A stretch of 64,000 bases of DNA from Chiloscyllium plagiosum. Its lineage: Eukaryota. The notes under the pieces were generated by a model, which was not told where the DNA came from, did not search any database, and was given only the letters and a program-made list of their open reading frames with translations. The position numbers were made by a program, and so were the translations under genes. The stretch is taken from positions 25,802,377 to 25,866,376 of the forward strand of contig NC_057719.1 in assembly GCF_004010195.1 (NCBI RefSeq), written 5' to 3'. Below, one piece after another: positions 2,676 through 58,990 of this stretch. The stretch's first letter is position 1. Every line of letters starts with the position of its first letter.

Positions 2676-4178
2676 GTATGATTCTATGATGAGTAGGGCC
2701 TTCTATCAGGGATAAAAAACTATTAACAGTGGAATGTTTTATGCTCTGACACAAGGAGAGAGACTATTGTTGACCTCTTTAGACCTTCCTGATGGCTGCC
2801 ACTCTCACCCTTCAGCTGAGGGGTTCAAATAACTGCTCAATCAACATACCAGAGGGGGGAAAAATAGATGGCAGTCTTTGTTCAGGTTGTTATCCACTCA
2901 TTTTCAAACATTTACCAGGGCTATATTTTGTACAGGACACAGTTCACAAACTAACTTTGTGGAAAACTGACACCATCAATCATATTTTAAGTTTAAAACA
3001 GGAATATATAAGAAAGATCCATGATCCAGATTTCTTTGGTTAGTTACAAAATTAATGATTTATTGTAAACCAAATCCTATTCAACGAAGATGATAAACTG
3101 ACTAAAATATTTAATTTAGAATCTGAAAATGTAAATGCTTATTCATCCAAATAGCGCAAAAACAAGCAGAAACATATGCATTGAGTAAAGGAAAACAAAA
3201 CTGATTTCTTTCAACAGAGATTCACTCTGGGAAAAAAAATGCTTTTGGCCAATAAGTCTAAATTCTTGGAAAACAAAATAACTAAGGTGTGTAATATTCA
3301 GATGCCTGTTGGACTGGCATTCCACCACATGTGAGCACAGGCATCACCAAACACAAGTGGTGGTTTCTGCGATCTTAACAGATACAGCTTGCTCTGGAAG
3401 CAATATATTGCAAAGTCTTCCAGTCAGTCTTCAAAGGGATAATCAGCAAAGGTGCTTCAAAGACAGGAGTCACAAATTGAGCAGTCTGTTCCCTAGCAGG
3501 CTTTAGCCAACTGAAAACTTGACACTTGCAAAGCACTGTTCGAAAAGAACAGTTATAAACCCAGTCATCAAAAGATTCTGGTGTTTTCATTAAAGTAACT
3601 TCAAGTAACCAAAATCAGCAGTTATCTGGAATCTTGTGGTTTTTGAGAAACATCATTCCAATGACCTTTCATTGACCTTGTTAAAATAAACACTCCAGGC
3701 ATCTCTACAACCATTCAAACTCAAATCCGCAAAAATTGGATCCATTATAACACCCGTTTATGATTCTTTACAGCTGTATTTTTTATACAACAGTTTCAAT
3801 TTTCTTCCACTCATTAACACCAGTGAGAACGGGTTCTCTTCAAGTTATACTGACTCTTCTAAACCCAGCTGATAATAGAAAAATAACAAACTTGACCTAT
3901 TATTCAATCCAACTAATTTAAAGGAGGTTTCTGTATAATTAAATTTCCAAGATGCTGAAATCTGACAAGGTAAAATTTCTAAAGCATGAAGGCTATCAAT
4001 ATTAAACTTGAATCTTGTAAAAAAGAGAAATCAATTCTATTGATCAAACAGGTGCGATGTTTTTAATGATGCATTGGGCTGCTGGAACAACGTTATGGAT
4101 GAATCTCAGCTAAGCTGGTCAAAGTTAGCACAATGTTTCATTAATACACCAGTGTAAAATCATGAAATACTTATCTAC

Positions 4179-4293
4179 CTTGTCTGGCCACTATTAAACT
4201 AGCCATGCAATCTGGAACACTTGTTCCTGCTGCCAGAAATGTTATTCCCATGATAATATCTGGAATCCCAAGTGTATACCCCGTTACGGTTAC
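4179..4293 (-). CDS. SLC24A4: NCKX4 coding exon (115 bp), [39 protein letters not shown], alpha-2 repeat
   Basis: tttgcag|GTA ACC...AGA CAA G|gtagat; [13 protein letters not shown] motif intact. Confidence 0.97.
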
Positions 4294-8368: not shown

Positions 8369-8704
8369 GACCCTGATCTACATGACTGTTCCCTGACTCC
8401 CTCACCTATCTGAAATCCTATTGCTTCACCCACCTCTCAGTAGCTTTCCAATTAGCTACACAACGTTTAAATCACAGAATTAGGGTACTTACTGCTGAAA
8501 AGGGTATTTAGTAGGATGTGATCCTCTGTGTTCCTGTTTTCATAGACAGTTGGATTCACCTAAACTGCTCTGGAACAGAAGACTCCAGGACACAGATTTG
8601 TGGGGAGAAATTGTCTAAAGGTAAATGCCCAGTTTTTGTTTTATCAGACCCAGAAATGTGGTTTCTGATCCGGATCAGAAAGATTTGGCCAATGTAAATA
8701 TGAT

Positions 8705-9378
8705 CAACTACTAGAAAGTGAGGACTGCAGATGATGGAGATCAGAGGTTCAGAGCATGGTGCTGGAAAAGTAAATGTAATTTACTGTATCCATTGCTCCC
8801 AATGCAGTCTCCTCCACATTGGGAATACAGGATGCCTACTTGCAGAGCGCTTCAGAGAACATCTCTGGGACACCCGCACCAACCAACCCCACTGCCCCAT
8901 GGCCAAACACGTCAACTCAGCCTCCCACTCTGCCAAGGACATGCAGGTCCTGGGCGTCCTCCGTCACCACACCCTAACCACCCGACACCTGAAGGAAGAA
9001 CGCTTCATCTTCCACCTTGGGACCCTCCAACCACATGGCATCAATATGGACTCCACTAGGTTTCTCACCCCCCCATCTTATCACAGTTTCAACCTTCCAG
9101 CTCAGCACCATCCTCATGACCTGTGCTACCTGTCCATCTTCGTTCCCACCTATCCGCTCCACCCTTCTCTCCGACCTATCACCATTACCAACACTTCCAT
9201 CTACCTATCACACTCTCAGCTACCTTGCCCCCAGTCCCACCCCGCCCTCCCATTTATCTCTCTACCCCTTCAGCTCACAAGCCTCTCTCCTGATGAAGGG
9301 CTCTTGCCCAAAACGTCGATTCTCCTGCTCCTCGGATGCTGCCTGACCTGCCGTGCTTTTCCAGCACCACACTCTCGA
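8705..9378 (+). mobile_element. 5'-truncated Penelope-like element: GIY-YIG C-terminus, terminal repeat with hammerhead core, inverted 5' piece
   Basis: NVIYCIHCSQCSLLHIGNTG..LAERFREH; core at 9290-9317 with GAAA changed to AAAA; 15-bp TSD caatgtaaatatgat (8690-8704 / 9379-9393). Confidence 0.85.
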
Positions 9379-10248
9379 CAATGTAAATATGATGCCAACT
9401 GAATAAAAATGAACCACTGGTGATAAGAATATTAGTAATACTGGGTGTTCAGAACACCAAGTCATATTAAAAGTACAGATTAGCCCTTTCACAAAACACC
9501 ACTTCTGCAATGCATTGAAAATAGCACAAGCTCAGAACTTTGCATTTCCATATCATACTGATAGGGACCATAAGTGCACTACACTTACAAGCGTTTTAAT
9601 TATTTTACAGAATGTTCCTGCAGAATCTAATTTTAGGAAAATATAATGACCATTAGTCAAAGGTTTCAAACGTAGAGAGAGAATTTCCAGTGCTTCAGTT
9701 TTGGTGAAACTAATAATGGACAATTCTTAATTGGTGACACTATCTTGATCCTTATGAGGAAGAAAGTAAGACATATTTTGTTTGCAAAGCTTTTGAATTT
9801 GTCAAGAAAATATATTGTGCACATCACTTTTGAGCAACCAACCATGAAAATTAATATATAAATGTCAGACAAAACATTTCATGCATTTACTTATATTTCT
9901 AATATATCTTTAATCTAATGTATTCAATATTTAATTTATTAATTTATTTTATGGTAACAGCTATTTGGAAACAAGATTTGAAATCTAATTTAAATAATAT
10001 TAATAATTAATGTTGCAAATGAATGGCAATTATGTTTTTATATCCTGCACCAAATCAAATTATGCAAAACGCTCATTGCAAAAAATACTATATCATCTTA
10101 TTTATCATCAGTGTTGCATTTATTTCAACATTACAATTACTCTTAAATAAGCAATCACTGGTCTACTGTTGGAAAGTTCTATAGCAGAACTTTGGTGATA
10201 CAGCTCATACAAATGGGAGGATCCTCCTTCTAGGTTTGTTGGGATAAG

Positions 10249-10469
10249 ATTAGAGTGATGCTGGAAAAGCACAGTAGGTCAGGCAGCATCCGAGGTGCAG
10301 GAAAACCGACGTTTCGAGCAAAAGCCCTTCATCAGAAATTCCTGCTGAAGGGCTTTTGCCCAAAACTATGATTTTCTAGCTCCTCGGATGCTGCCTGACC
10401 TGCTGTGCTTTTCCAGCACCATTCTAATTTTGACTCTGATCTCCAGCATCTACAGTACCCACTTCTGCC
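10249..10469. mobile_element. Palindromic family A element with back-to-back hammerhead cores
   Basis: Cores about 10308-10335 (-) and 10342-10367 (+, degenerate); 14-bp TSD tttgttgggataag (10235-10248 / 10470-10483). Confidence 0.85.
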
Positions 10470-13847: not shown

Positions 13848-14201
13848 TGATCATAATGGTGGTGCAGGCTCGAAGGGCAGAATGGCCTCCTCCTGCACCT
13901 ATTGTCTATTGTCTACAAGCAGCCATCCTGAAAATGATCCACTTGCTCCTACTCTCTATTCCCTGCCCATAAACCAATTCTGAACTCATTTTGATAGAGT
14001 ATGTCAATGGTCATCTCAGTTGTTTGAGGCAATACAATAGCACACCATGGAACTGCATATCTCTCTTCCTTACTCCCATTCAAATATCTGGCTTCTTGTT
14101 GGTCTGGGGCTATTGCATTTGTCTTCCCTCAATAAATTCTTTCAACACAAGATATGTTAAAATGTATGATGATTTTCCTGAGTGATTTCTTTCTTACTTA
14201 C

Positions 14202-14368
14202 CATCCACACCATTAAATAAGAAAAGACTGCAATCCATAGAGTGGACATGAGAAAGGTTAGCATGAAGAAATTCTCCCAGCGAGGCTTCGCACAGTTAGG
14301 GACTGTGAAGAACAGCACAAGCAATACCGGCCACGAACTCAACCATTTCACCTTAGTCAAGCATCCCC
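14202..14368 (-). CDS. SLC24A4: NCKX4 coding exon (167 bp), GGCLTKVKWLSSWPVLLVLFFTVPNCAKPRWENFFMLTFLMSTLWIAVFSYLMVWM
   Basis: attgacag|GG GGA TGC...TGG ATG|gtaagt; PNC.KPRWE and LWIAVFSY.MVW motifs. Confidence 0.95.
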
Positions 14369-15102: not shown

Positions 15103-15270
15103 CAGGTCAGGCAGCATCCAAGGAGCAGGAGAATCGACTTTTTGGGCAAGAGCTCTTCATCAGGAGTTGAAGGGCTAATGAAGCTCGGATGCTGCCTGAC
15201 CTGCTGTGCTTTCCCAGCACCACACTCTCAACTCTGATCTCCAGCATCTGTAGTCCTCGCTTTCTCCTAC
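15103..15270. mobile_element. Palindromic family A element
   Basis: caggtcaggcagcatcc / ggatgctgcctgacctg arms; degenerate core about 15135-15164 (-); flanks gtttagtaacag / gtttagtagcag. Confidence 0.75.
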
Positions 15271-17984: not shown

Positions 17985-19590
17985 TCAGTTTTTGACTTTG
18001 GTAAACTCCCCATGGTAAACTAATGGAGGAAGTGAAGTCACATGGTGTGCAGGGTGTTCTAGCTAGGTGGATAAAGAACTGGTTGAGCAAAAGGAGACAG
18101 AGAGTAGTAGTTGAAGGGAATTTCTCAAAATGGAGAAAGCTGACCAGTGGTGTTCCACAGGGGTCAGTGTTGGGGCCACTGTTGTTTGTGATATTCATAA
18201 ATGATCTAGAAGGGGACACTGTTGGTATGGTCAGTAACTTTGCAGACGACACAAAGATTGGTGGAGTAGCAGAAAGCATAAGGGACTGTCAGAGAATACA
18301 GGAGGATATATGAATAAAGAACTGGTTGAGCAACAGGAGACAGAGAGTAGTAGTTGAAGGGGATTTCTCAAAATGAAGAAAGGTGACCAGTGGTGTTCCA
18401 CAGGGGTCAGTATTGGGGCCACTGTTGTTTGTGATATACATAAATGACCTGGAAGAGGGCACTGATGGTATGGTCAGTAACTTTGCAGACGACACATAGA
18501 TTGGTGGAGTAGCAGAAAGCATAGGGGACTGTCAAAGAATACCGGAAAATATAGATAGACTCGAGAGAAGTAGCAAATGGAGTTCAATTCAGCAAATGTA
18601 AGGTGATGCATTTTGGGAAGTCTAATTCTAGAACCAACTACACTGTAAACGGAAGAGCCTTGGGAAAGGTTGATGAGCAAAGAGATCTGGGAGTTCAGGT
18701 CCATTGTACCCTGAAGGTGGCTGCACAGATGGACAGAGTGGTCAAGAAGGCATACGGTATGCTTAGTTAAAAATCACACAACACCAGATCATAGTCCAAA
18801 AGGTTTAATTGGAAACACTAGCTTTCGGTGGTTGATGAAGGACTACCTGATGAAGGAGCGGTGCTCCGAAAGCTCGTGCTTCTAATTAAACCTGTTGGAC
18901 TATAACAGGGTGTTGTGTGATTTTTAACTTTGTCCACCCCAGTCCAACACCAGCATCTCCAAATTATGGTATGCTTGCCTTCATTGAATGGGGTATTGAG
19001 TATAAGAGTTGGCAGGTCATGTTAAATCTGTACAAGACACTGGTTTGGCCGCATTTAGAATACTGTGTACAGTTCTGGTCGCCACATTACGAAAAGGATG
19101 TGGACGCTTTGGAGAGGTTGCAGAGAAGGTTTATGAGGATGTTGCCTGGTTTGGAAGGTGCTGGCTATGAAGAGAGGCTGAGTAGGTTAGGATTGTTTTC
19201 ATTAAAAAAAAGATTGAGGGGGGACCTGATTGAGGTTTACAAAATCATGAAGGGTATAGACAGGGTAGATAGATATAAGCTTTTTTCCAGTGTGAGAGAT
19301 TCAATAACGAGAGGTCACGCGTTCAAGGTGAGAGCTGAAAAGTTTAAGGGGGATATACGCAGCAAGTACTTTACACAGAGGTGCCTGGAACACGTTGCCA
19401 GCAGAGGTAGTAGAGGCAGGCACAGTAGATTCATTTAAGGTGTGTCTGGACAGATGCATGAGTAGGTAGGGAGCAGAGGGATACAGATGCTTAGGAATTG
19501 GGCGACAGGTTTAGACAGTGGATTTAGATCAGCTCATGCTTGGAGGGCCGAACAGCCTGTCCCTGGGCTGTAAATTTTCTTTGTTCTTTG
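17985..19590 (+). mobile_element. CR1 LINE RT and 3' fragment with internal tandem duplication and nested family B element
   Basis: [13 protein letters not shown]...NFADDTK occurs twice. Confidence 0.9.
18765..18967. mobile_element. Palindromic family B element with hammerhead core
   Basis: CTGATGAAGGAGCGGTGCTCCGAAAGCTC at 18847-18875; TSD ggtatgctt (18756-18764 / 18968-18976). Confidence 0.85.
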
Positions 19591-22749: not shown

Positions 22750-23028
22750 CAGTGTCGAAAAGTGTGGCACTGGAAAAGCACAGTGGGTCAGGCAGTATCC
22801 GAGGAGCAGTAAAATCGACGTTTCGGGCAAAAGCCCTTCATCAGAAATACAGCTTTTACCTAGTATCCAAGGAGCAGGAGAGTTGACGTTTTGGGCACAT
22901 TCCTGATGAAGGGCTTAGGCTGGAAATGTCGATTGCCTTGCTTCTCGGATGTTGCCTGACCTGCTGTGCTTTTCCAGCGCCACACGTTTTGACTGTGATC
23001 TCCAGCATCTGTAGTCCTCACTTTCTCC
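22750..23028. mobile_element. Compound palindromic family A element with two hammerhead cores
   Basis: Intact minus core CTGATGAAGGGCTTTTGCCCGAAACGTC at 22817-22844; plus core 22903-22930; flanks caactgagtaa / caactgaataa. Confidence 0.85.
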
Positions 23029-25724: not shown

Positions 25725-28156
25725 AGAAAAAGTGAGAATTGCAGATGCTGGAGATCAGAGTCGAGAGTGTGTTGCTGGGAAAGCACAGCAGGTCAGGCAT
25801 CATCCAAGGAGCAGGGGAATCGATGTTTCGGGCATAAGGCCTTCATCAGATTGAGGGTTGTGGGCTGGGTGGGGTTGGGGGGGAAGTAGCTGTGAAAGTG
25901 ATAGGTGGAAGAAGGTAAGGGAGAAGGTGATAGGTCAGAAGGGGGGAGTGAACAACAGGACTGGAAGGCAGTGCCGAGTTGGAGGCTTGGGATTAGGATA
26001 ATGTGGGGAGAGGGGAAATGAGGAAGCTGTTGAAATCCACATTTATCCCATGTGGTAGCAGGGTCCAAAGGTGGAAAATGAGGCGTTCATCTTCAGGCAT
26101 CGGGTGGTAACAGTTTGGCAGTGGAGGAGGCCCAGGACCTGCAAGTCTTTGACGGAGAGGAAGGGGGAGTTGAAGTGTTCAGCCACAAGGCGGTGGGGTT
26201 GGTGGGTGCAGGTGTCCCAGAGAAGTTCTCTGAAATGATCCAGAAGAAGGCATCCTGTCCCCACGATGTAGAGGAGACCACACCAGGTGCAAAGGATGTA
26301 ATAGATGACATTGGTAGAGGTACAGGTAAATTTCTGACAGATATGGAAGGATCCCTTGGGGACTTGGATGGAGGCGAGGGGTGTGGTGTGGGTGCAGGTT
26401 TTGTACTTCCGGCAATGGCAGGAAAAGGTGCCAGGAGTGGGGTGTGTGCTGGTATGGGGTGTGGACCTGACAAGGGAGCCGCGGAGGGAATGTTTCTCCA
26501 GAACGCTGATGGGGATGGGGAGGGAAATATATCTCTGGTGGTGGGGTCCGTTTGGAGGTGGCAGAAATGGCGGAGGATGATGCAATGTATGCAGAGGTTG
26601 GTGGGTGGAAGCTGAGGACTGGGGTTTTTTGTCCTTGTTGCATTAGGAGGGGTGGGGTTTTAGGGCAATGGCGCATGAAGTGGAGGAGATGCGCTGGAGG
26701 GCATGGTCAACTATGTGGGAAGGGAAGTTGCAATCGTGGAAGAAGGAGGCCATCTGGGACTTTCTGAGGTGGACTTGGTCATCCTGAAAACAGATGTGAC
26801 AGTGATGGATGAATTGGGAATCGGGGATGGAATTTTTAAAGGAGGCAGAGTGGGAGGAGTCTAGGTAGCTTTGGGAGTCAGTAGGCTTGTAGTAGATGTC
26901 TGTGGTTAATCGGTTGCCAGAGAAAGTGATGGAGAGGTCCAGGAAGGTGAGGAAGGTGTCCGAGATGGTCCAGGTGAGTTTGAGGTCGGGGTGGAAGGTG
27001 TTGGTTAACTTGATGAACTGTTAAACCTCCTTGTGGGAGCATGGGGTGGAACCGATACAGTCACTGATGTAGCGGAAGAAAAGGTAGGGGCTGGTGCCAG
27101 TGTAACTACTGAAGATGGACTGTCCCATGTATCCGACAACCAGGCAGACATAGCTGGGTCGGATGCAGGTGCCCATGGCTACCCCTTTGGTTTGGCGGAA
27201 GTGGGAGGATTAGAAGGACAAGTTGTTGAGGGTGAGGGCCAGTTCAGCCAGGCAGGTGAGAGTATCAGTGGAAGGGTACTGATTGGGATGGTGTGAGAGG
27301 AAGAAATGGAAACAGAGGGCTTGCAGACCTTCATTGTGGCAGATCGATGTATATAGGGACTGGATGTCCATGGTGAAAATGAGGCATTGCAGACCGGACA
27401 AACAAAAATATTGGAGGAGATGGGTGTGGGTGGTGTCATAAACATATGTGAGGAGCTCCTGGACTAAGGGGACAGGATGGTGTCAAGGTCGGAAGAGATA
27501 AGTTCAGTGGGACAGGTGCAGGCTGAGACAATGGGACAACCGGGGCAGGCAGGTTGGTGAATCTTCGGTAGGAGATAGAATCGGGCAGTGCAGGGTTCAA
27601 GACAGTGAGGTCGGAGGCTGTGGGTGGGAGATCCCCAGAGGTGATGAGATTGTGGATGGTCTGGGAGATGATGGTTTGGTGATGGGAGGTGAGGTCGTGA
27701 TCAAGGGGGCAGTAGGAGGAGATGTCTGTGAGTTGGTTCCTGGCTTCAGTGGTATAGAGGTTGGAGTGCCACACATCTACTGCACCCTCCTTGTCTGTGA
27801 GTTTGATGGTGAGGTTGGGGTTGGAGCAGAGGGAGTGGAGGGCTGCGCGTTGTGAAGGTGGGAGTTGGAGTGGGTAAGGGAGTGGACAGGTTGAGGCGGT
27901 TAATGTCTCAGCAATAGTTTGAAATCAAGAGGTCAAGGGTGGGTAACAGACCAGCACGGGGTGTCCAGGTGGATGGGGTGTGTTGCAGGTGGGAGAAGGG
28001 GTCTAGGTGGGAGGGTGGGTGTCTTGAGTGAAAAAGTGGGCTCGGAGGCAGAGACAATGGAAGAAACATTCAAGGTGGCAGCGTGTGTCGAACTCATTAA
28101 TCTGGGAGCGTAGAGGAATGAAGGTGAGGCCTTTGCTGAGGACAAAACATTCGTTT
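25725..28156 (-). mobile_element. Long degenerate Penelope-like element (RT, GIY-YIG, terminal repeat) nested in an old CR1
   Basis: FTCTSTNVIYYILCTWCGLLYIVGTG; FTMDIQSLYTSI; VLSKGLTFIPL; TSD agatgtc(a/g)tgagt (25712-25724 / 28157-28169). Confidence 0.88.
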
Positions 28157-42559: not shown

Positions 42560-44418
42560 CAGCATGAGGCATGATTGGGGCAGATGTTCACAGGTAAAGG
42601 GATGGCTGGAAAATGGGAAACCTTAAAAAATGAGATAACAAGAATCCAGAGACAGTATATTCCTGTTAGGATGAAAGGAAAGGCTGGTAGGTGTAGGGAA
42701 TGCTGGATGACAAAAGAGATTGAGGGTTTAGTTAAGAAAAAGAAGGAAGTGTATGTCATGTATAGACAGGATAGATCGAATAAATTCCTTAGAAGAGTCT
42801 AAAGGCAGTAGGAGAAGATTCGAGAGAAATCAGGAGGGTGAAAGGGGGACATGAAATAGCTTTGGCAAATAGGGTTAAGGAGAATCCAAACAGTTTTTAC
42901 AAATACATTAAGGACAAAAGGGCAACTAGGGAGAGAATAGGACCCCTCAAAGAACAGCAAGATGGCCTATTTGTGGAGCCACAGGAGGTGGGAGAGATAC
43001 TAAACGAGTATTTTGCAGCAGTATTTACTGTGGAAAAGGACATGGAAGATATAGACTGTAGAGAAATAGACGGTGACATCTTGAAAAATGTCCATATTAC
43101 AGAGGAGGAACTGCTGGATGTCTTGAAATCCATAAAAGTGGACAAATCCCCAGGACCTGATCAGGTGTACCCTAGAACTCTGTGAGAAGCTACGGAAGTG
43201 ATTGCTGGGCCTCTTGCTGAGATACAAACTTGATTGAATTTTTTGAGGAAGCAACAAGAGGATTGATGAGGGCAGAGCAGTTGACATGATCTATATGGAC
43301 TTCAGCAAGGTGCTCGACAAGACTGGTTAGCAAGGTTAGATCTCATGGAATACAGAGAGAACTAGCCATTTGGATACAGAACTGGCTCAAAGGTAGAAGA
43401 CATAGAGTTGTGGTGGAGGGTTGCTTTTCAGCCTGGAGCCCTGTGACCATGGGTGTGCCACAAGGATCGGTACTGGGTCCACTGCTTTTTGTCATTTATA
43501 TAAATGATTTGGATGTGAACAAAGGAGGTACAGTTAGTAAGTTTGCAGATGACACCAAAATTGGAGGTGCAGTGGACAGCGAAGAAGGTTACCTCAGATT
43601 ACAACAGGATCTTGACCAGATGGGCCAATGGGCTGTGGAGTACCAGATGGAGTTTAATTGAGATAAATGTGAGGTGCTGCATTTTGGGAAAGCAAATCTT
43701 AGCAGGGCTTATACACTTAATAGTAAGGTCCTGGGGAGTGTTGCTGAACAAAGAAACCTTAGAGTGCAGGTTCATAGCTCCTTGAAAGTAGAGTCGCAGC
43801 TAGATACTCTTGTAAAAAAGGCATTTGGTATGCTTTCCTTTATTGGTCAGAGCATTGAGTATAGGAGTTGGGAGGCCATGTTGCAGATGTACAGGACATT
43901 GGTTAGGCCACTGTTGGAATACTGGGTGCAATTCTGGTCTCCCTCCTATTGGAAGGATATTGTGAAACTTGAAAGGGTTCAGAAAAGATTTACAAGGATG
44001 TTGCCAGGGTTGGAATGCCCTCTAGTTCTGGACTTCCCCTCCCCAGGGAAAAGACTTTGTCTATTTATCCTATCCATGAGGGGCATGGATAGGATAAATA
44101 GACAAAGTCTTTTCCCTGGGGAGGGGAAGTCCAGAACTAGAGGGCATAGGTTTAGGGTGAGAGGGGAAAGATATAAAAGAGACCTAAGGGGCAACCTTCC
44201 ATACAGAGGGTGGCGTGTGTATGGAATGAGCAGCCAGACAAAGTGAAAGAGGTTGGTACATTTATAGCATTTAAAAGGCATGGGTATATGTCTGGGAAGG
44301 ATTTAGAGTGATACGGGTCAAGTGCTGGGAGGTGGGACTAGATTAGGTTAGGATATCTGGTCAGTATGGATGAGTTGGACTGGAGGGTCTGTTTTCGTGC
44401 TGTACATCTCTATGACTC
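42560..44418 (+). mobile_element. CR1 LINE ORF2 fragment with internal inverted duplication
   Basis: [28 protein letters not shown]. Confidence 0.92.
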
Positions 44419-47284: not shown

Positions 47285-47969
47285 TTACTACTGTAAATAC
47301 CAGCAGCAACTCTTACATTTATAAAATGCCTTTAGTGCAGAAATCAAAGTCAAAACTGTTCATAGAGGAGTAAGGAACCAATTAGTGACTTACCAAGGAA
47401 GATATTAAGAGAAGAGACCAAAAACATGATAGATTAAGTGTGTTTTAACATTTGACCCAAAGCTCAATATCAATTCTGAGATTAGTTTGAAATCAGAGCT
47501 AATATAAACGATTATAAGATTAATCTGGGATACAGTGAGATAATACCCATTTGTGAGGCCAAGAGAGCCCCTTAATAACAAAAAGGATTGGACTTAAGGG
47601 GTCTCCAACTGACAATTTCACAAGGACATGAAATAAAATAATGCCAAGTCGACTATTTTGCTAATTGAATCAAAGGTGTGTTCCGTCTCATGGTCAATAC
47701 ATAGATCTACTTTTAAGAAACAGGGCTCATGATATCATTACTGCGTTACAACATGTAACCTGAGGGTATAAAGACCACTCACTCCATCTTTCCTCTGACC
47801 ACTTGTAACGTGGCACTTTCCTAGAAGCATGTTTCTTGAGTGTAATGTGATTGCTTATTATAAACCTAGATATGTATGTGTCTGAGGAATGTGTTGTTTG
47901 TACATCATACTTAGTTGTTTTAAATGTTGCGGGCTTCAATATTATGATAGTCACGCCCAGTTTCTTATG

Positions 47970-48193
47970 ATTTGGAGATGCCGGTGTTGGACTGGGGTGT
48001 ACAAAGTTAAAAATCACACAACACCAGGTTATAGTCCAACAGGTTTAATTGGAAGCACACTAACTTTCGGAGCGACGCTCTTTCATCAGGTGATTGTCTC
48101 ACCTGATCACCTGATGAAGGAGCGTCGCTCCGAAAGCTAGTGTGCTTCCAATTAAACCTGTTGGACTATAACCTGGTGTTGTGTGATTTTTAA
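47970..48193. mobile_element. Palindromic family B element with hammerhead cores on both strands
   Basis: Cores 48061-48089 (-) and 48111-48139 (+); 14-bp TSD cccagtttcttatg (47956-47969 / 48194-48207). Confidence 0.88.
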
Positions 48194-49810
48194 CCCAGTT
48201 TCTTATGTTATGGGAGATAATATCAGGAAAAAAAACACTATGCTGGAGGCAAACTCACAAGCTACACCAATTTTCCCTTGTAATTTCTCACACATATCCA
48301 ATAAACTGAACACATACTTCTGATCAAAACTCATTCTCTCCTCTCTCAACTTTAAAATCAGTAAGACTGAAAAGATGGAGTAGCTGATTGTGTGTTTGAA
48401 AAGTACTCTGTACATTTTCCAATAAAAAGGTAGCAATGACTGGAAAATATGAAACATAAATTGGGTAGTCCCAACACCAGCTATAGAAAAGATGATGTAT
48501 CTGTGAGACTATGATTACTGATTGTTTGGTTTCCCTAGGTGGCATAAGACAGCCCATAAACTATAGAGTTACAGTGCAGGTTTTATCACCTAAAAATACA
48601 GATTTTAGTCTAAGTTTTGAAGAATGTTTTCACATTGTCTTGTGCTTTCGGGAAGGCCTGTCAGTTTCTGAACTAATGTCTGGTGAGATATGAAGAACTG
48701 ACTTGAGTAGGAGCTACAAAGTAATGATCAAGGGGCAGCAGTGCATGGACCTAAGAAGGATTATGTGCAACGACATAGGATGGAATTAGGAAGTTCAACT
48801 CAACTCCTCTGGACCCAAAGTAAAAACAGAAAGTGCTGAAGAAACTCAGCAGGTCTGGCAGCATTTGTGGAGAGACGGAAAACAGAGTTAACAATTTGAG
48901 TCCAATACCAAAGAAGAGTCATGTTGGACTTGAAGTATGAAACTGAAAAAGATTTGGAAAGATTAACAAAGTTGTTAACTCTGGAAACTTGCCAAGGTAG
49001 GTGACCCACCTCCTGACCTCCTTAAGCTTCTCCACTATCTACAAGGCACAGGTCAGGAATGTGATGGAATTCTACCCAAATGGGTGCACCTGCAAGAACA
49101 CTCAAGAAGCTCGACTTTGATTGGCACCCCATCTACTACCTTCAACAATCACTTCCTTCAGCGCCAGTACATAGCAGGTATTATCTCCGAGTATCCTGCA
49201 ACAATTCATTTCACATCGGAGCACCTCAAAGGTCTAGGGTAGCAACTATGTATGAAGACCATCACCTGCAAAGTCTCCCCTTGCCCAACCCCCTCAAAGC
49301 AACACACTATCTTGATTAGGGATTATATCATGAGCCATGAATTAGCACCAGGTTAAAATCTTGGATACGCATCCCTGACAACAGTGTGGATATAAAAGTT
49401 GCAGTTGTTCAAGGCAGTAGCTGAATTGCACCTTCTCAAGCAATTATCAGTGGGAATAAAATGCTGTCCTTGCCTGTGTGGTTCATAATCCATGGATGCA
49501 TAAAAATACATTTGAAAAATTAACCCCAGCACTTTGTTTACATTGCTTATGGCCTTATCAATTTGGGTTGTTGCTTTTAATGAGTTATGCTCTGAATTCC
49601 TGACTTAACAAAGATAATGTGGAAGACTAGTGGGGTTAGGTGGCACATCAAAAAGAGCAAAAATGTGGCATTAAATTGTTCAAAATATATTATATTTCAG
49701 GCTTTTCATTTTAGATATAAATCAGAAATATTGAAATTAGGAAAATTCACCTTTATCCAGCATCATTGCATACTTATGAGCAAGTTTCTAAAACAAATTT
49801 AAAAACTTAC

Positions 49811-57924: not shown

Positions 57925-58729
57925 TTGAAGAGTGTGGTGCTGGAAAAGCACAGCCAGTCAGGCACCATCCGAGGAGCAGGAAAGTTGACAATTCGAGCAT
58001 GCGCTTTTCATCAGAAATGAGGGAGTACCCTAAGAGGTTGAGAGATAAATGGGAGGGGGTAGCTGAGAATGCGATAGATAAATGAAGGTAGGGGTGAAGG
58101 TGATAGGTCGAAGGGGAGGGTGGAGTGGATAGGAGGGAAGGAAGATGGACAGATGGGACAGTTTAAGAGGGCGGTGCCAAGTGGAAAGTTGGATCTGGGA
58201 TAAGGTGGGGGGAGGGGAAATGAGGAAACTGGTGAAATCCACATTGATCCCGTGTGGTTTGAGGATCCCAAGGCAGAAGATGAGACTTTCTTCCTCCAGG
58301 AGTTTGGCTGCTAGAGTTTGGCAATGGAGGAGGCCCAGGATTTGCATGTCCTTGGCGGAGTGAGAGGGGGAGTTGAAGTGTTCGACCACAGGGCGCTGGG
58401 GTTGTTTAGAGCGTGTGTCCCAGAGATGTTCTCTGGAACGTTCCACAAGTTGGTGTCCTGTCTTCCCAATGTAGAGGAGACCACATCGAAAGCAATGGAC
58501 ATAGCAGATGGCATGTGTGGAAGGACAGATAAATCTCTGTCAGATGTGAAAGGAATCTTGGGGCCTTGGACAGAGGTGAGTGGGGGAGGTGTGGGCACAG
58601 GTTTTGCACTTCTTACAGTGGCAGGGAAATGTGCCAGGAGTGGAGGGTGGGTTAGTAGGGGGCACGGTCCTAACAAGGGAGTCACAGAGGGAATGGTCTG
58701 CAGTCTGCAAGTTAGCATTCCTCACTTTT
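57925..58729 (-). mobile_element. Penelope-like 3' fragment (GIY-YIG and terminal repeat)
   Basis: PGTFPCHCKKCKTC; REHLWDTR...VVEHFNS; 13-bp TSD tccaggtaagtag (57912-57924 / 58730-58742). Confidence 0.85.
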
Positions 58730-58898: not shown

Positions 58899-58990
58899 GA
58901 TGAAGGGCTTTTGCCCGAAACGTCAATTTTCCTGCTCCTCAGATGCTGCCTGACCTGCTGTGCTTTTCCAGCATCACTTTAATCTTGACA
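58899..58990 (+). mobile_element. Family A half element
   Basis: gatgaagggcttttgcccgaaacgtc with the CT of the core missing. Confidence 0.75.

Follow-up and report, generated by a model that had tools for sequence, protein, structure and literature searches.

The palindromic element at positions 47956–48207 of the window, by which we mean the whole 64,000-nt stretch of Chiloscyllium plagiosum DNA analysed here, is in all likelihood a pair of hammerhead-bearing terminal modules of a Penelope-like element (PLE), arranged head to head, with a tail on one side only and a 14-bp target-site duplication (TSD). It most probably arose at a single insertion, when short cDNAs primed from both target strands were joined together. 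What we observe directly is the anatomy of the element, the centres of three related copies, the abundance of arms relative to centres in sequencing reads, two family ends about 36 nt apart, the shared sequence upstream of the module, and the junction in one predicted protein.

The window has a G+C content of about 42% and is rich in repeats, among them LINE reverse transcriptase (RT) fragments that are presumably CR1. The element at 48 kb is bounded by an exact 14-bp direct repeat, 47956–47969 and 48194–48207, which we read as the TSD; repeats of at least 14 bp occurred in 8 of 1,958 random boxes of equal size. The last 3 bases of the left TSD overlap the tail end, and the first base of the right TSD is also compatible with the end of the arm. 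Between the duplications lie a PLE-type tail (47967–48005, minus strand), found on the left side only and delimited by alignment and by the unrelated flanks before 47967/8 and 48001/48003; a left arm, which is an inverted copy of the pLTR 3′ module (48006–48097, minus strand) and reaches 8 nt upstream of core C3; a copy-specific junction filler (48098–48105), 7 of whose 8 bases repeat 48107–48113; and a right arm, the same module without the tail (48106–48194, plus strand), which begins 5 nt upstream of core C3. The tail is 39 nt long when measured from the end of the right arm, and about 36 nt when the tailless end most frequent in reads is taken as the reference. The palindrome of the original prediction is thus retained as regards its inverted arms and 14-bp TSD, but it is not symmetric, the 39-nt extension at 47967–48005 being present on the left only. 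Its arms, which had been put at about 85 bp, are real and measure 89 bp (48006–48094 versus 48106–48194), with 87/89 positions identical. The RNA fold of the element has a predicted energy of −175.8 kcal/mol (z −22.7).

The statement that the element holds no ORF of note needs a qualification: a 57-codon frame exists on the plus strand (47967–48140), yet this is no gene, only the repeat read in antisense. All three sense frames run into stops within the module, and no ORF starts in the hammerhead; the element holds no gene and was likely dead on arrival. The target beyond the TSD resembles the antisense tail end, with 22 of 25 positions identical when the TSD is included (47967–47980 versus 48205–48218). 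This single case may reflect homology-aided priming or a target preference. One contig from a second sample of organism A (DNA run X5) reads from the left flank into the tail. In run X13, a contig of organism B ends at 47969 with 13 letters over, as well as 24 unaligned letters at its other end, and another contig of the same organism begins at 48193 with 52 letters over. These two contig ends fit an empty site at this locus in organism B, for which no bridging row was displayed.

Both arms carry a minimal type I hammerhead motif with features described in the available text of PMC4209133, the plus copy at 48108–48142 and the minus copy at 48058–48092. In the plus copy, a 3-bp helix I is accompanied by CUGAUGA at 48111–48117, an extra A, a 5-bp helix II at 48119–48131, GAAA, and a palindromic AGCU, so that all four features of the minimal motif are present, namely the boxes, the extra base 9/10.1, the G10.1–C11.1 pair and the palindromic 15.2–16.2. 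The predicted cut falls between 48139 and 48140, and hence after the CUA, as had been proposed. Cores of the form CUGAUGA-A-helix II-GAAA-NNUA start at 48111 on the plus strand and at 48089, the C3 of the minus copy, on the minus strand. The claim of cores on both strands therefore holds for the motifs as such, but the minus core deviates at G10.1, which is A, and at 16.2, which is U, and does not form the G10.1–C11.1 pair. At 48081, 93–96% of the DNA depth shows C, the base that keeps G10.1.

The suggested kinship with the minimal hammerheads of Penelope-like elements agrees with this motif anatomy. The Rfam scan proposed along with it came out negative, with no hammerhead match at E up to 1, which we do not count against the assignment because the minimal motif lacks helix III. 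The call therefore rests on the motif anatomy in comparison with the available text of PMC4209133. The scan returned only five matches, all to microRNA hairpins and at about half of the gathering scores or less; with such scores, a microRNA reading of the hairpin was rejected.

In folding predictions, helix II pairs with a probability of 0.95–0.97 in the lone right arm and of 0.89–0.92 for 4 of its 5 pairs in the lone left arm; for helix I the predicted probability does not exceed 0.02 in the lone arms either. In whole and in nascent transcripts of both strands, helices I and II are predicted to pair with a probability of 0.000. Because the geometry is head to head, the antisense arm is transcribed first on both strands, and because each RNA has one sense core, a dimer is impossible in cis. 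In these models the antisense arm zips up the only sense core, a transcript of the element would form a hairpin of about 90 bp instead of an active ribozyme, and cleavage of a host pre-mRNA is predicted to be unlikely. The proposal that the element presents a ribozyme whichever strand is transcribed is thus not supported by these predictions, in that the sense core is preceded by its own complement. The calculations describe equilibrium folding, and cleavage by the Anolis ribozyme was protein-dependent (PMC11167929); by analogy, a protein could remodel the hairpin, which would count against a sequestered core. No pile-up of RNA ends was reported in the RNA run, the library of which is ill-suited to test self-cleavage.

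A sodium/calcium exchanger gene (Pfam Na_Ca_ex), which we take to be SLC24A3/4-like, is represented by two minus-strand exons at 4174–4293 and about 14200–14368. The first repeat of the exchanger protein was not found in the window, and the 48-kb element is therefore likely intronic in this gene, with the host pre-mRNA on the minus strand. The core facing this likely pre-mRNA is the mutated, minus one.

The two sister copies that had been listed were found again. The fold-back at 18765–18967 (18756–18976 including the TSD) has its tail on the right, one core, a different centre and an exact 9-bp TSD, and it sits inside a LINE RT fragment. When the insertion and one TSD are taken out, this fragment aligns ungapped over 137–138 nt to two other LINE copies. 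The fold-back at about 606–753 (592–764 including the TSD) also has its tail on the right, but a different centre again and no core, and its TSD matches in 12 of 14 positions (592–605 versus 751–764). In this single case, the right arm (655–665) starts roughly 1 nt past the predicted cleavage position of the hammerhead, as though its template had been a cleaved RNA. Across the three copies in the window, the tail is always on one side only, the centres differ in 3/3, two cores are found in one, and in two of them the tail end and the TSD share 3 nt. TSD lengths are variable, at 14, 9 and about 14 (12/14) bp, and with the asymmetric ends they bear out the earlier preference for retrotransposition over a MITE. 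Elsewhere in the window, at 44015–44147, a LINE fragment contains a 133-bp, 96% perfect inverted repeat that is unrelated to the PLE modules.

A second PLE family, family A, offers a parallel within the window. Its insertion at 8690–9393 comprises an inverted end (8713–8770), a truncated endonuclease frame and a pLTR (9288–9379), with an exact 15-bp repeat on both sides and 8 extra bases between the left repeat and the element, and it has the canonical form of a PLE insertion. Decayed coding copies with RT, Cys linker and GIY-YIG-like regions lie on the minus strand at 25726–28155 and 57929–58692, and family A ends also form fold-backs at 338–527, 10246–10464, 22750–23028, 15103–15266 and 58899–58988. 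Since its copies are 25–43% identical to the closest full-length relative of the family to which the 48-kb element belongs (family B), family A is a separate family. Of 18 family A alignments, 11 start between −1 and +2 relative to core C3; as family A copies diverge in the pyrimidine tract upstream, we do not count these starts as breakpoints.

In three DNA runs, 67,382, 46,466 and 75,323 contigs align to the stretch, run X13 being partly uncounted among the DNA runs. Summed depth, which is not a copy number, reaches 1.6–2.5 million at 48124 in the right arm versus 228–617 at the centre, 48098, so that the centre has about 10^−4 of the depth of the arm. Clearly, it is not the whole palindrome that has been amplified. 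There are 648 distinct joints, of which 15 were listed. Unrelated flanks (agreement 0.33–0.37) pile up before 47967/8, the tail end, and before 48001/48003, the tailless end, in all three DNA runs; the family therefore has two ends about 36 nt apart. Upstream of 48106/48108, shared sequence continues in 554 and 479 RNA reads (agreement 0.83 and 0.70), and the same continuation is seen in DNA with an agreement of 0.44–0.49. The module is therefore the end of something longer. Joints at 48106–48109 partly reflect where the reference arm begins. Joints at 48142–48143 were considered as stops at the ribozyme cut and rejected, as a common 2-base deletion at 48140 splits alignments, with diverged core between. 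Pattern scans returned 0 loci in viral_contigs and 0 in metagenome_contigs.

As originally stated, no coding partner of family B is found in the window: the upstream motif has 0 matches there, and the best RT and endonuclease matches are pieces of family A, 25–43% identical. Searching proteins with the element's antisense frame gave one protein among three candidates, P0001 (XP_072410591.1), a Chiloscyllium punctatum gene model annotated as ‘uncharacterized protein’. Residues 81–126 of P0001 match tail plus arm, read in antisense, with 80% identity, and residues 144–375 are 65% identical to P0002, an 881-residue protein that contains an RT (Pfam RVT_1 match), a CX4CXXC linker and a GIY-YIG-like end. 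The latter motif was recognized by eye, without a Pfam GIY-YIG match in P0002; the relative P0013 has such a match, and P0001 stops before the endonuclease. Residues 131–144 of P0001 correspond to a frameshifted RT motif after DKGG, which agrees with P0002 in 10 of 13 positions (0/1,000 shuffles) and with P0003 in 8 of 13 (2/1,000 shuffles), the agreement also being weaker with shorter segments. This motif fills the gap, and the inverted, tailed end of family B therefore directly abuts a 5′-truncated PLE RT. P0001 thus combines a pLTR read in antisense with a truncated PLE RT that is frameshifted, and is likely an annotation artefact. Judging from this one predicted protein of a related shark, the terminal module of family B appears to belong to an element with a PLE RT.

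A CX2-5CXXC linker is present in P0002, P0003 and 93 of the 120 relatives listed (165 found), and a GIY-YIG-like pattern in 67 of the same 120. This type of linker is assigned to Neptune/Nematis in the available text of PMC8557442, and by motif the RT relatives of family B would be of the Neptune/Nematis type. A near-length protein search with the antisense frame gave nothing. In a search of representatives there were six matches; one, the unnamed 148-residue P0122, has a related antisense reading, and the other five were set aside as multi-stretch and weak.

Poly(A) signals follow consensus rules, with AATAAA or ATTAAA and a GU-rich stretch downstream. The right arm contains such a region (48151–48191, plus strand), with ATTAAA at 48151–48156, a common AATAAA variant (48152 T>A in reads) and a downstream GU-rich stretch. 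In RNA run X21, of which about 2 in 100 were sampled, 955 of 2,857 reads on the family end in poly(A), 442 of them behind 48168 and 513 behind 48171, which amounts to one poly(A) site at about 48169/48170, 13 nt after A(T/A)TAAA. The DNA at this site is not A-rich, which argues against internal priming, and no poly(A) end occurs among the DNA loose ends listed. Run X21 has no reads on the flanks, and the poly(A) reads come from the family, not from the 48-kb copy; none of the runs listed as carrying the locus is on record as RNA. Both insertion ends lie downstream of the poly(A) site, by 25 and about 60 nt. The template must therefore be an upstream repeat or a read-through RNA, and the 3′ end of the processed transcript cannot be the start of copying. 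The position of the poly(A) site is compatible with reverse transcription that starts internally and with an R-U5 layout like that of LTRs. Within 47400–48800, A>G and T>C account for 32 of the 87 change places listed in the RNA run, whereas the three DNA runs together give 24 of 124 (p 0.007 by Fisher's test, the animals not being matched), which hints at A-to-I editing of fold-back RNAs.

The arms that end just upstream of the core (two arms), together with the poly(A) site, suggest a module resembling R-U5. A tentative extension, which we regard as possible but doubtful, is that the RNA starts a few bases before the core and receives its poly(A) about 60 nt downstream of it, inside the repeat, the short and fold-back copies being target-primed ‘strong-stop’ cDNAs. 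Reverse transcription would then start in the upstream repeat, at the two tail borders, the cDNA would run off the 5′ end of the RNA after about 90–130 nt, and full-length copies would need a jump to the RNA's 3′ end via the repeated 60–70 nt. If true, this one rule would account for pLTR, tail and inverted ends alike, and the poly(A) site makes such a strong-stop-and-jump model testable. The poly(A) site used within the module lends in vivo support to internal initiation in a second PLE clade. A literature search by title and abstract, with most subscription papers, Repbase and Dfam outside its reach, returned no R-U5 or strong-stop reading of a PLE end.

For the 48-kb element itself, we infer the following order of events. 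The RT/GIY-YIG protein of an autonomous family B element would make a staggered cut with the two nicks 14 bp apart. One 3′ end would prime at the tail end, aided by 3 nt of microhomology, and the other at the tailless end; both cDNAs would stop 5–8 nt upstream of the hammerhead core and would be joined through a short templated filler, after which gap fill would yield the TSD. Such double priming resembles L1 twin priming, except that here both primers start at the end of the element. That both arms end at different family ends, each abutting or overlapping the TSD, fits the two RT start sites and the extension of both target strands described in the available text of PMC11167929.

The same PLE origin could also be combined with an inversion that arises when a single cDNA, or an antisense template, folds back or primes itself. 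In PMC3846280 (Arkhipova et al. 2013), the palindromes at head-to-head junctions are read as self-priming on an antisense template, and the centres of the copies in the window do hold short templated repeats; but the two arms end one at the tail end and one at the tailless end, each abutting or overlapping the TSD, as expected from the two RT starts seen in vitro, and we consider self-priming improbable. The original prediction, a retrozyme-like non-autonomous family, would correspond to palindromic units that are transcribed, cleave themselves and are put back into the genome whole by PLE proteins. The element is indeed non-coding and hammerhead-bearing, the TSDs are long and variable, three fold-backs lie within 64 kb, and non-autonomous PLE derivatives exist, as described in the accessible parts of 10.64898/2026.07.22.740005 and PMC8557442. 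However, described animal retrozymes are head-to-tail tandems and this element is head to head, the centres differ in 3/3 copies, 2/3 copies lack two cores, and the depth of 228–617 at the centre compares with millions on the arms; the cores, moreover, are predicted to be sequestered. With the centre nearly absent from reads and the family end joined to a PLE RT in P0001, the retrozyme-like unit had to be given up, and we hold it to be very unlikely. A MITE or fold-back DNA transposon with chance hammerhead-like words would account for a short, non-coding element with long inverted repeats and a high copy number, but it is scarcely credible given the asymmetric ends with a tail on one side, the unequal TSD lengths of 14, 9 and about 14 bp, and a module that abuts PLE RT sequence in P0001.

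In its anatomy, the 48-kb element comes close to what has been described for PLEs. In PMC8557442 (Craig et al. 2021) and PMC3846280, the usual PLE insertion has an adjacent inverted and truncated copy, a one-sided tail of 30–40 bp and a variable TSD, the latter source giving TSDs of 8–10 bp; PMC8969392, as far as its text is available, describes the same form, and inverted repeats of varying size are described for D. virilis in the accessible part of PMC2377424. With this EN+ insertion unit the element shares its head-to-head inverted ends, a one-sided 30–40-nt tail, a long variable TSD and a short, non-matching or palindromic junction, and, on the one predicted protein, a module associated with a PLE RT. 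It differs in that its arms are cut to about 90–130 nt with no ORF between them, the smallest form of the unit.

The hammerheads likewise have a precedent. Dual minimal hammerheads on opposite strands, 100–700 bp apart and tied to truncated PLEs, appear in the accessible text of PMC4209133 (2014). Our element shares CUGAUGA and GAAA, the extra base at 9/10.1, the palindromic 15.2–16.2 and the missing loop 3 with that motif, and its plus copy, unlike its minus copy, also shares G10.1–C11.1; its 3-bp helix I and 5-bp helix II differ, and no shark is named in that part of the paper. A search of literature listings turned up no shark-specific description of such an element.

The Anolis PLE protein PAc (Frangieh et al. 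2024, PMC11167929), as described in the available text, cleaves and extends both target strands, two RT start sites internal to the RNA delimit the tail, and hammerhead cleavage is dispensable in vitro. Common to PAc and family B are a hammerhead upstream of a two-ended tail and, in the order of events proposed for family B, extension of both target strands and an RT start internal to the RNA. PAc, however, is a Poseidon element, whereas most relatives of family B (93 of 120 listed, of 165) carry the Neptune/Nematis linker; family B, unlike PAc, has no ORF starting in the hammerhead and has a used poly(A) site between hammerhead and tail. Animal non-LTR retrozymes (Li, Clavereau and Pollet 2026, 10.64898/2026.07.22.740005, available text) are, like the element, non-coding, derived from a PLE pLTR and equipped with a type I hammerhead, but they are head-to-tail arrays with a core per unit, whereas the element consists of two inverted modules and offers a single sense core on each strand.

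As a locus, the element is ordinary, one of very many dead stumps whose architecture and ribozyme motif were described in 2013–2021; its interest lies in the material it offers on how PLEs make inverted ends and tails, and modules of this kind could also supply host transcripts with poly(A) signals or double-stranded RNA. It has neither the tandem head-to-tail units and amplification as a unit of a retrozyme nor the symmetric terminal inverted repeats and fixed-length TSD of a MITE, and its inverted copy, one-sided tail and variable TSD are those of an EN+ PLE insertion. The element is thus a PLE insertion unit in minimal form, and its ribozyme motif is a known one.
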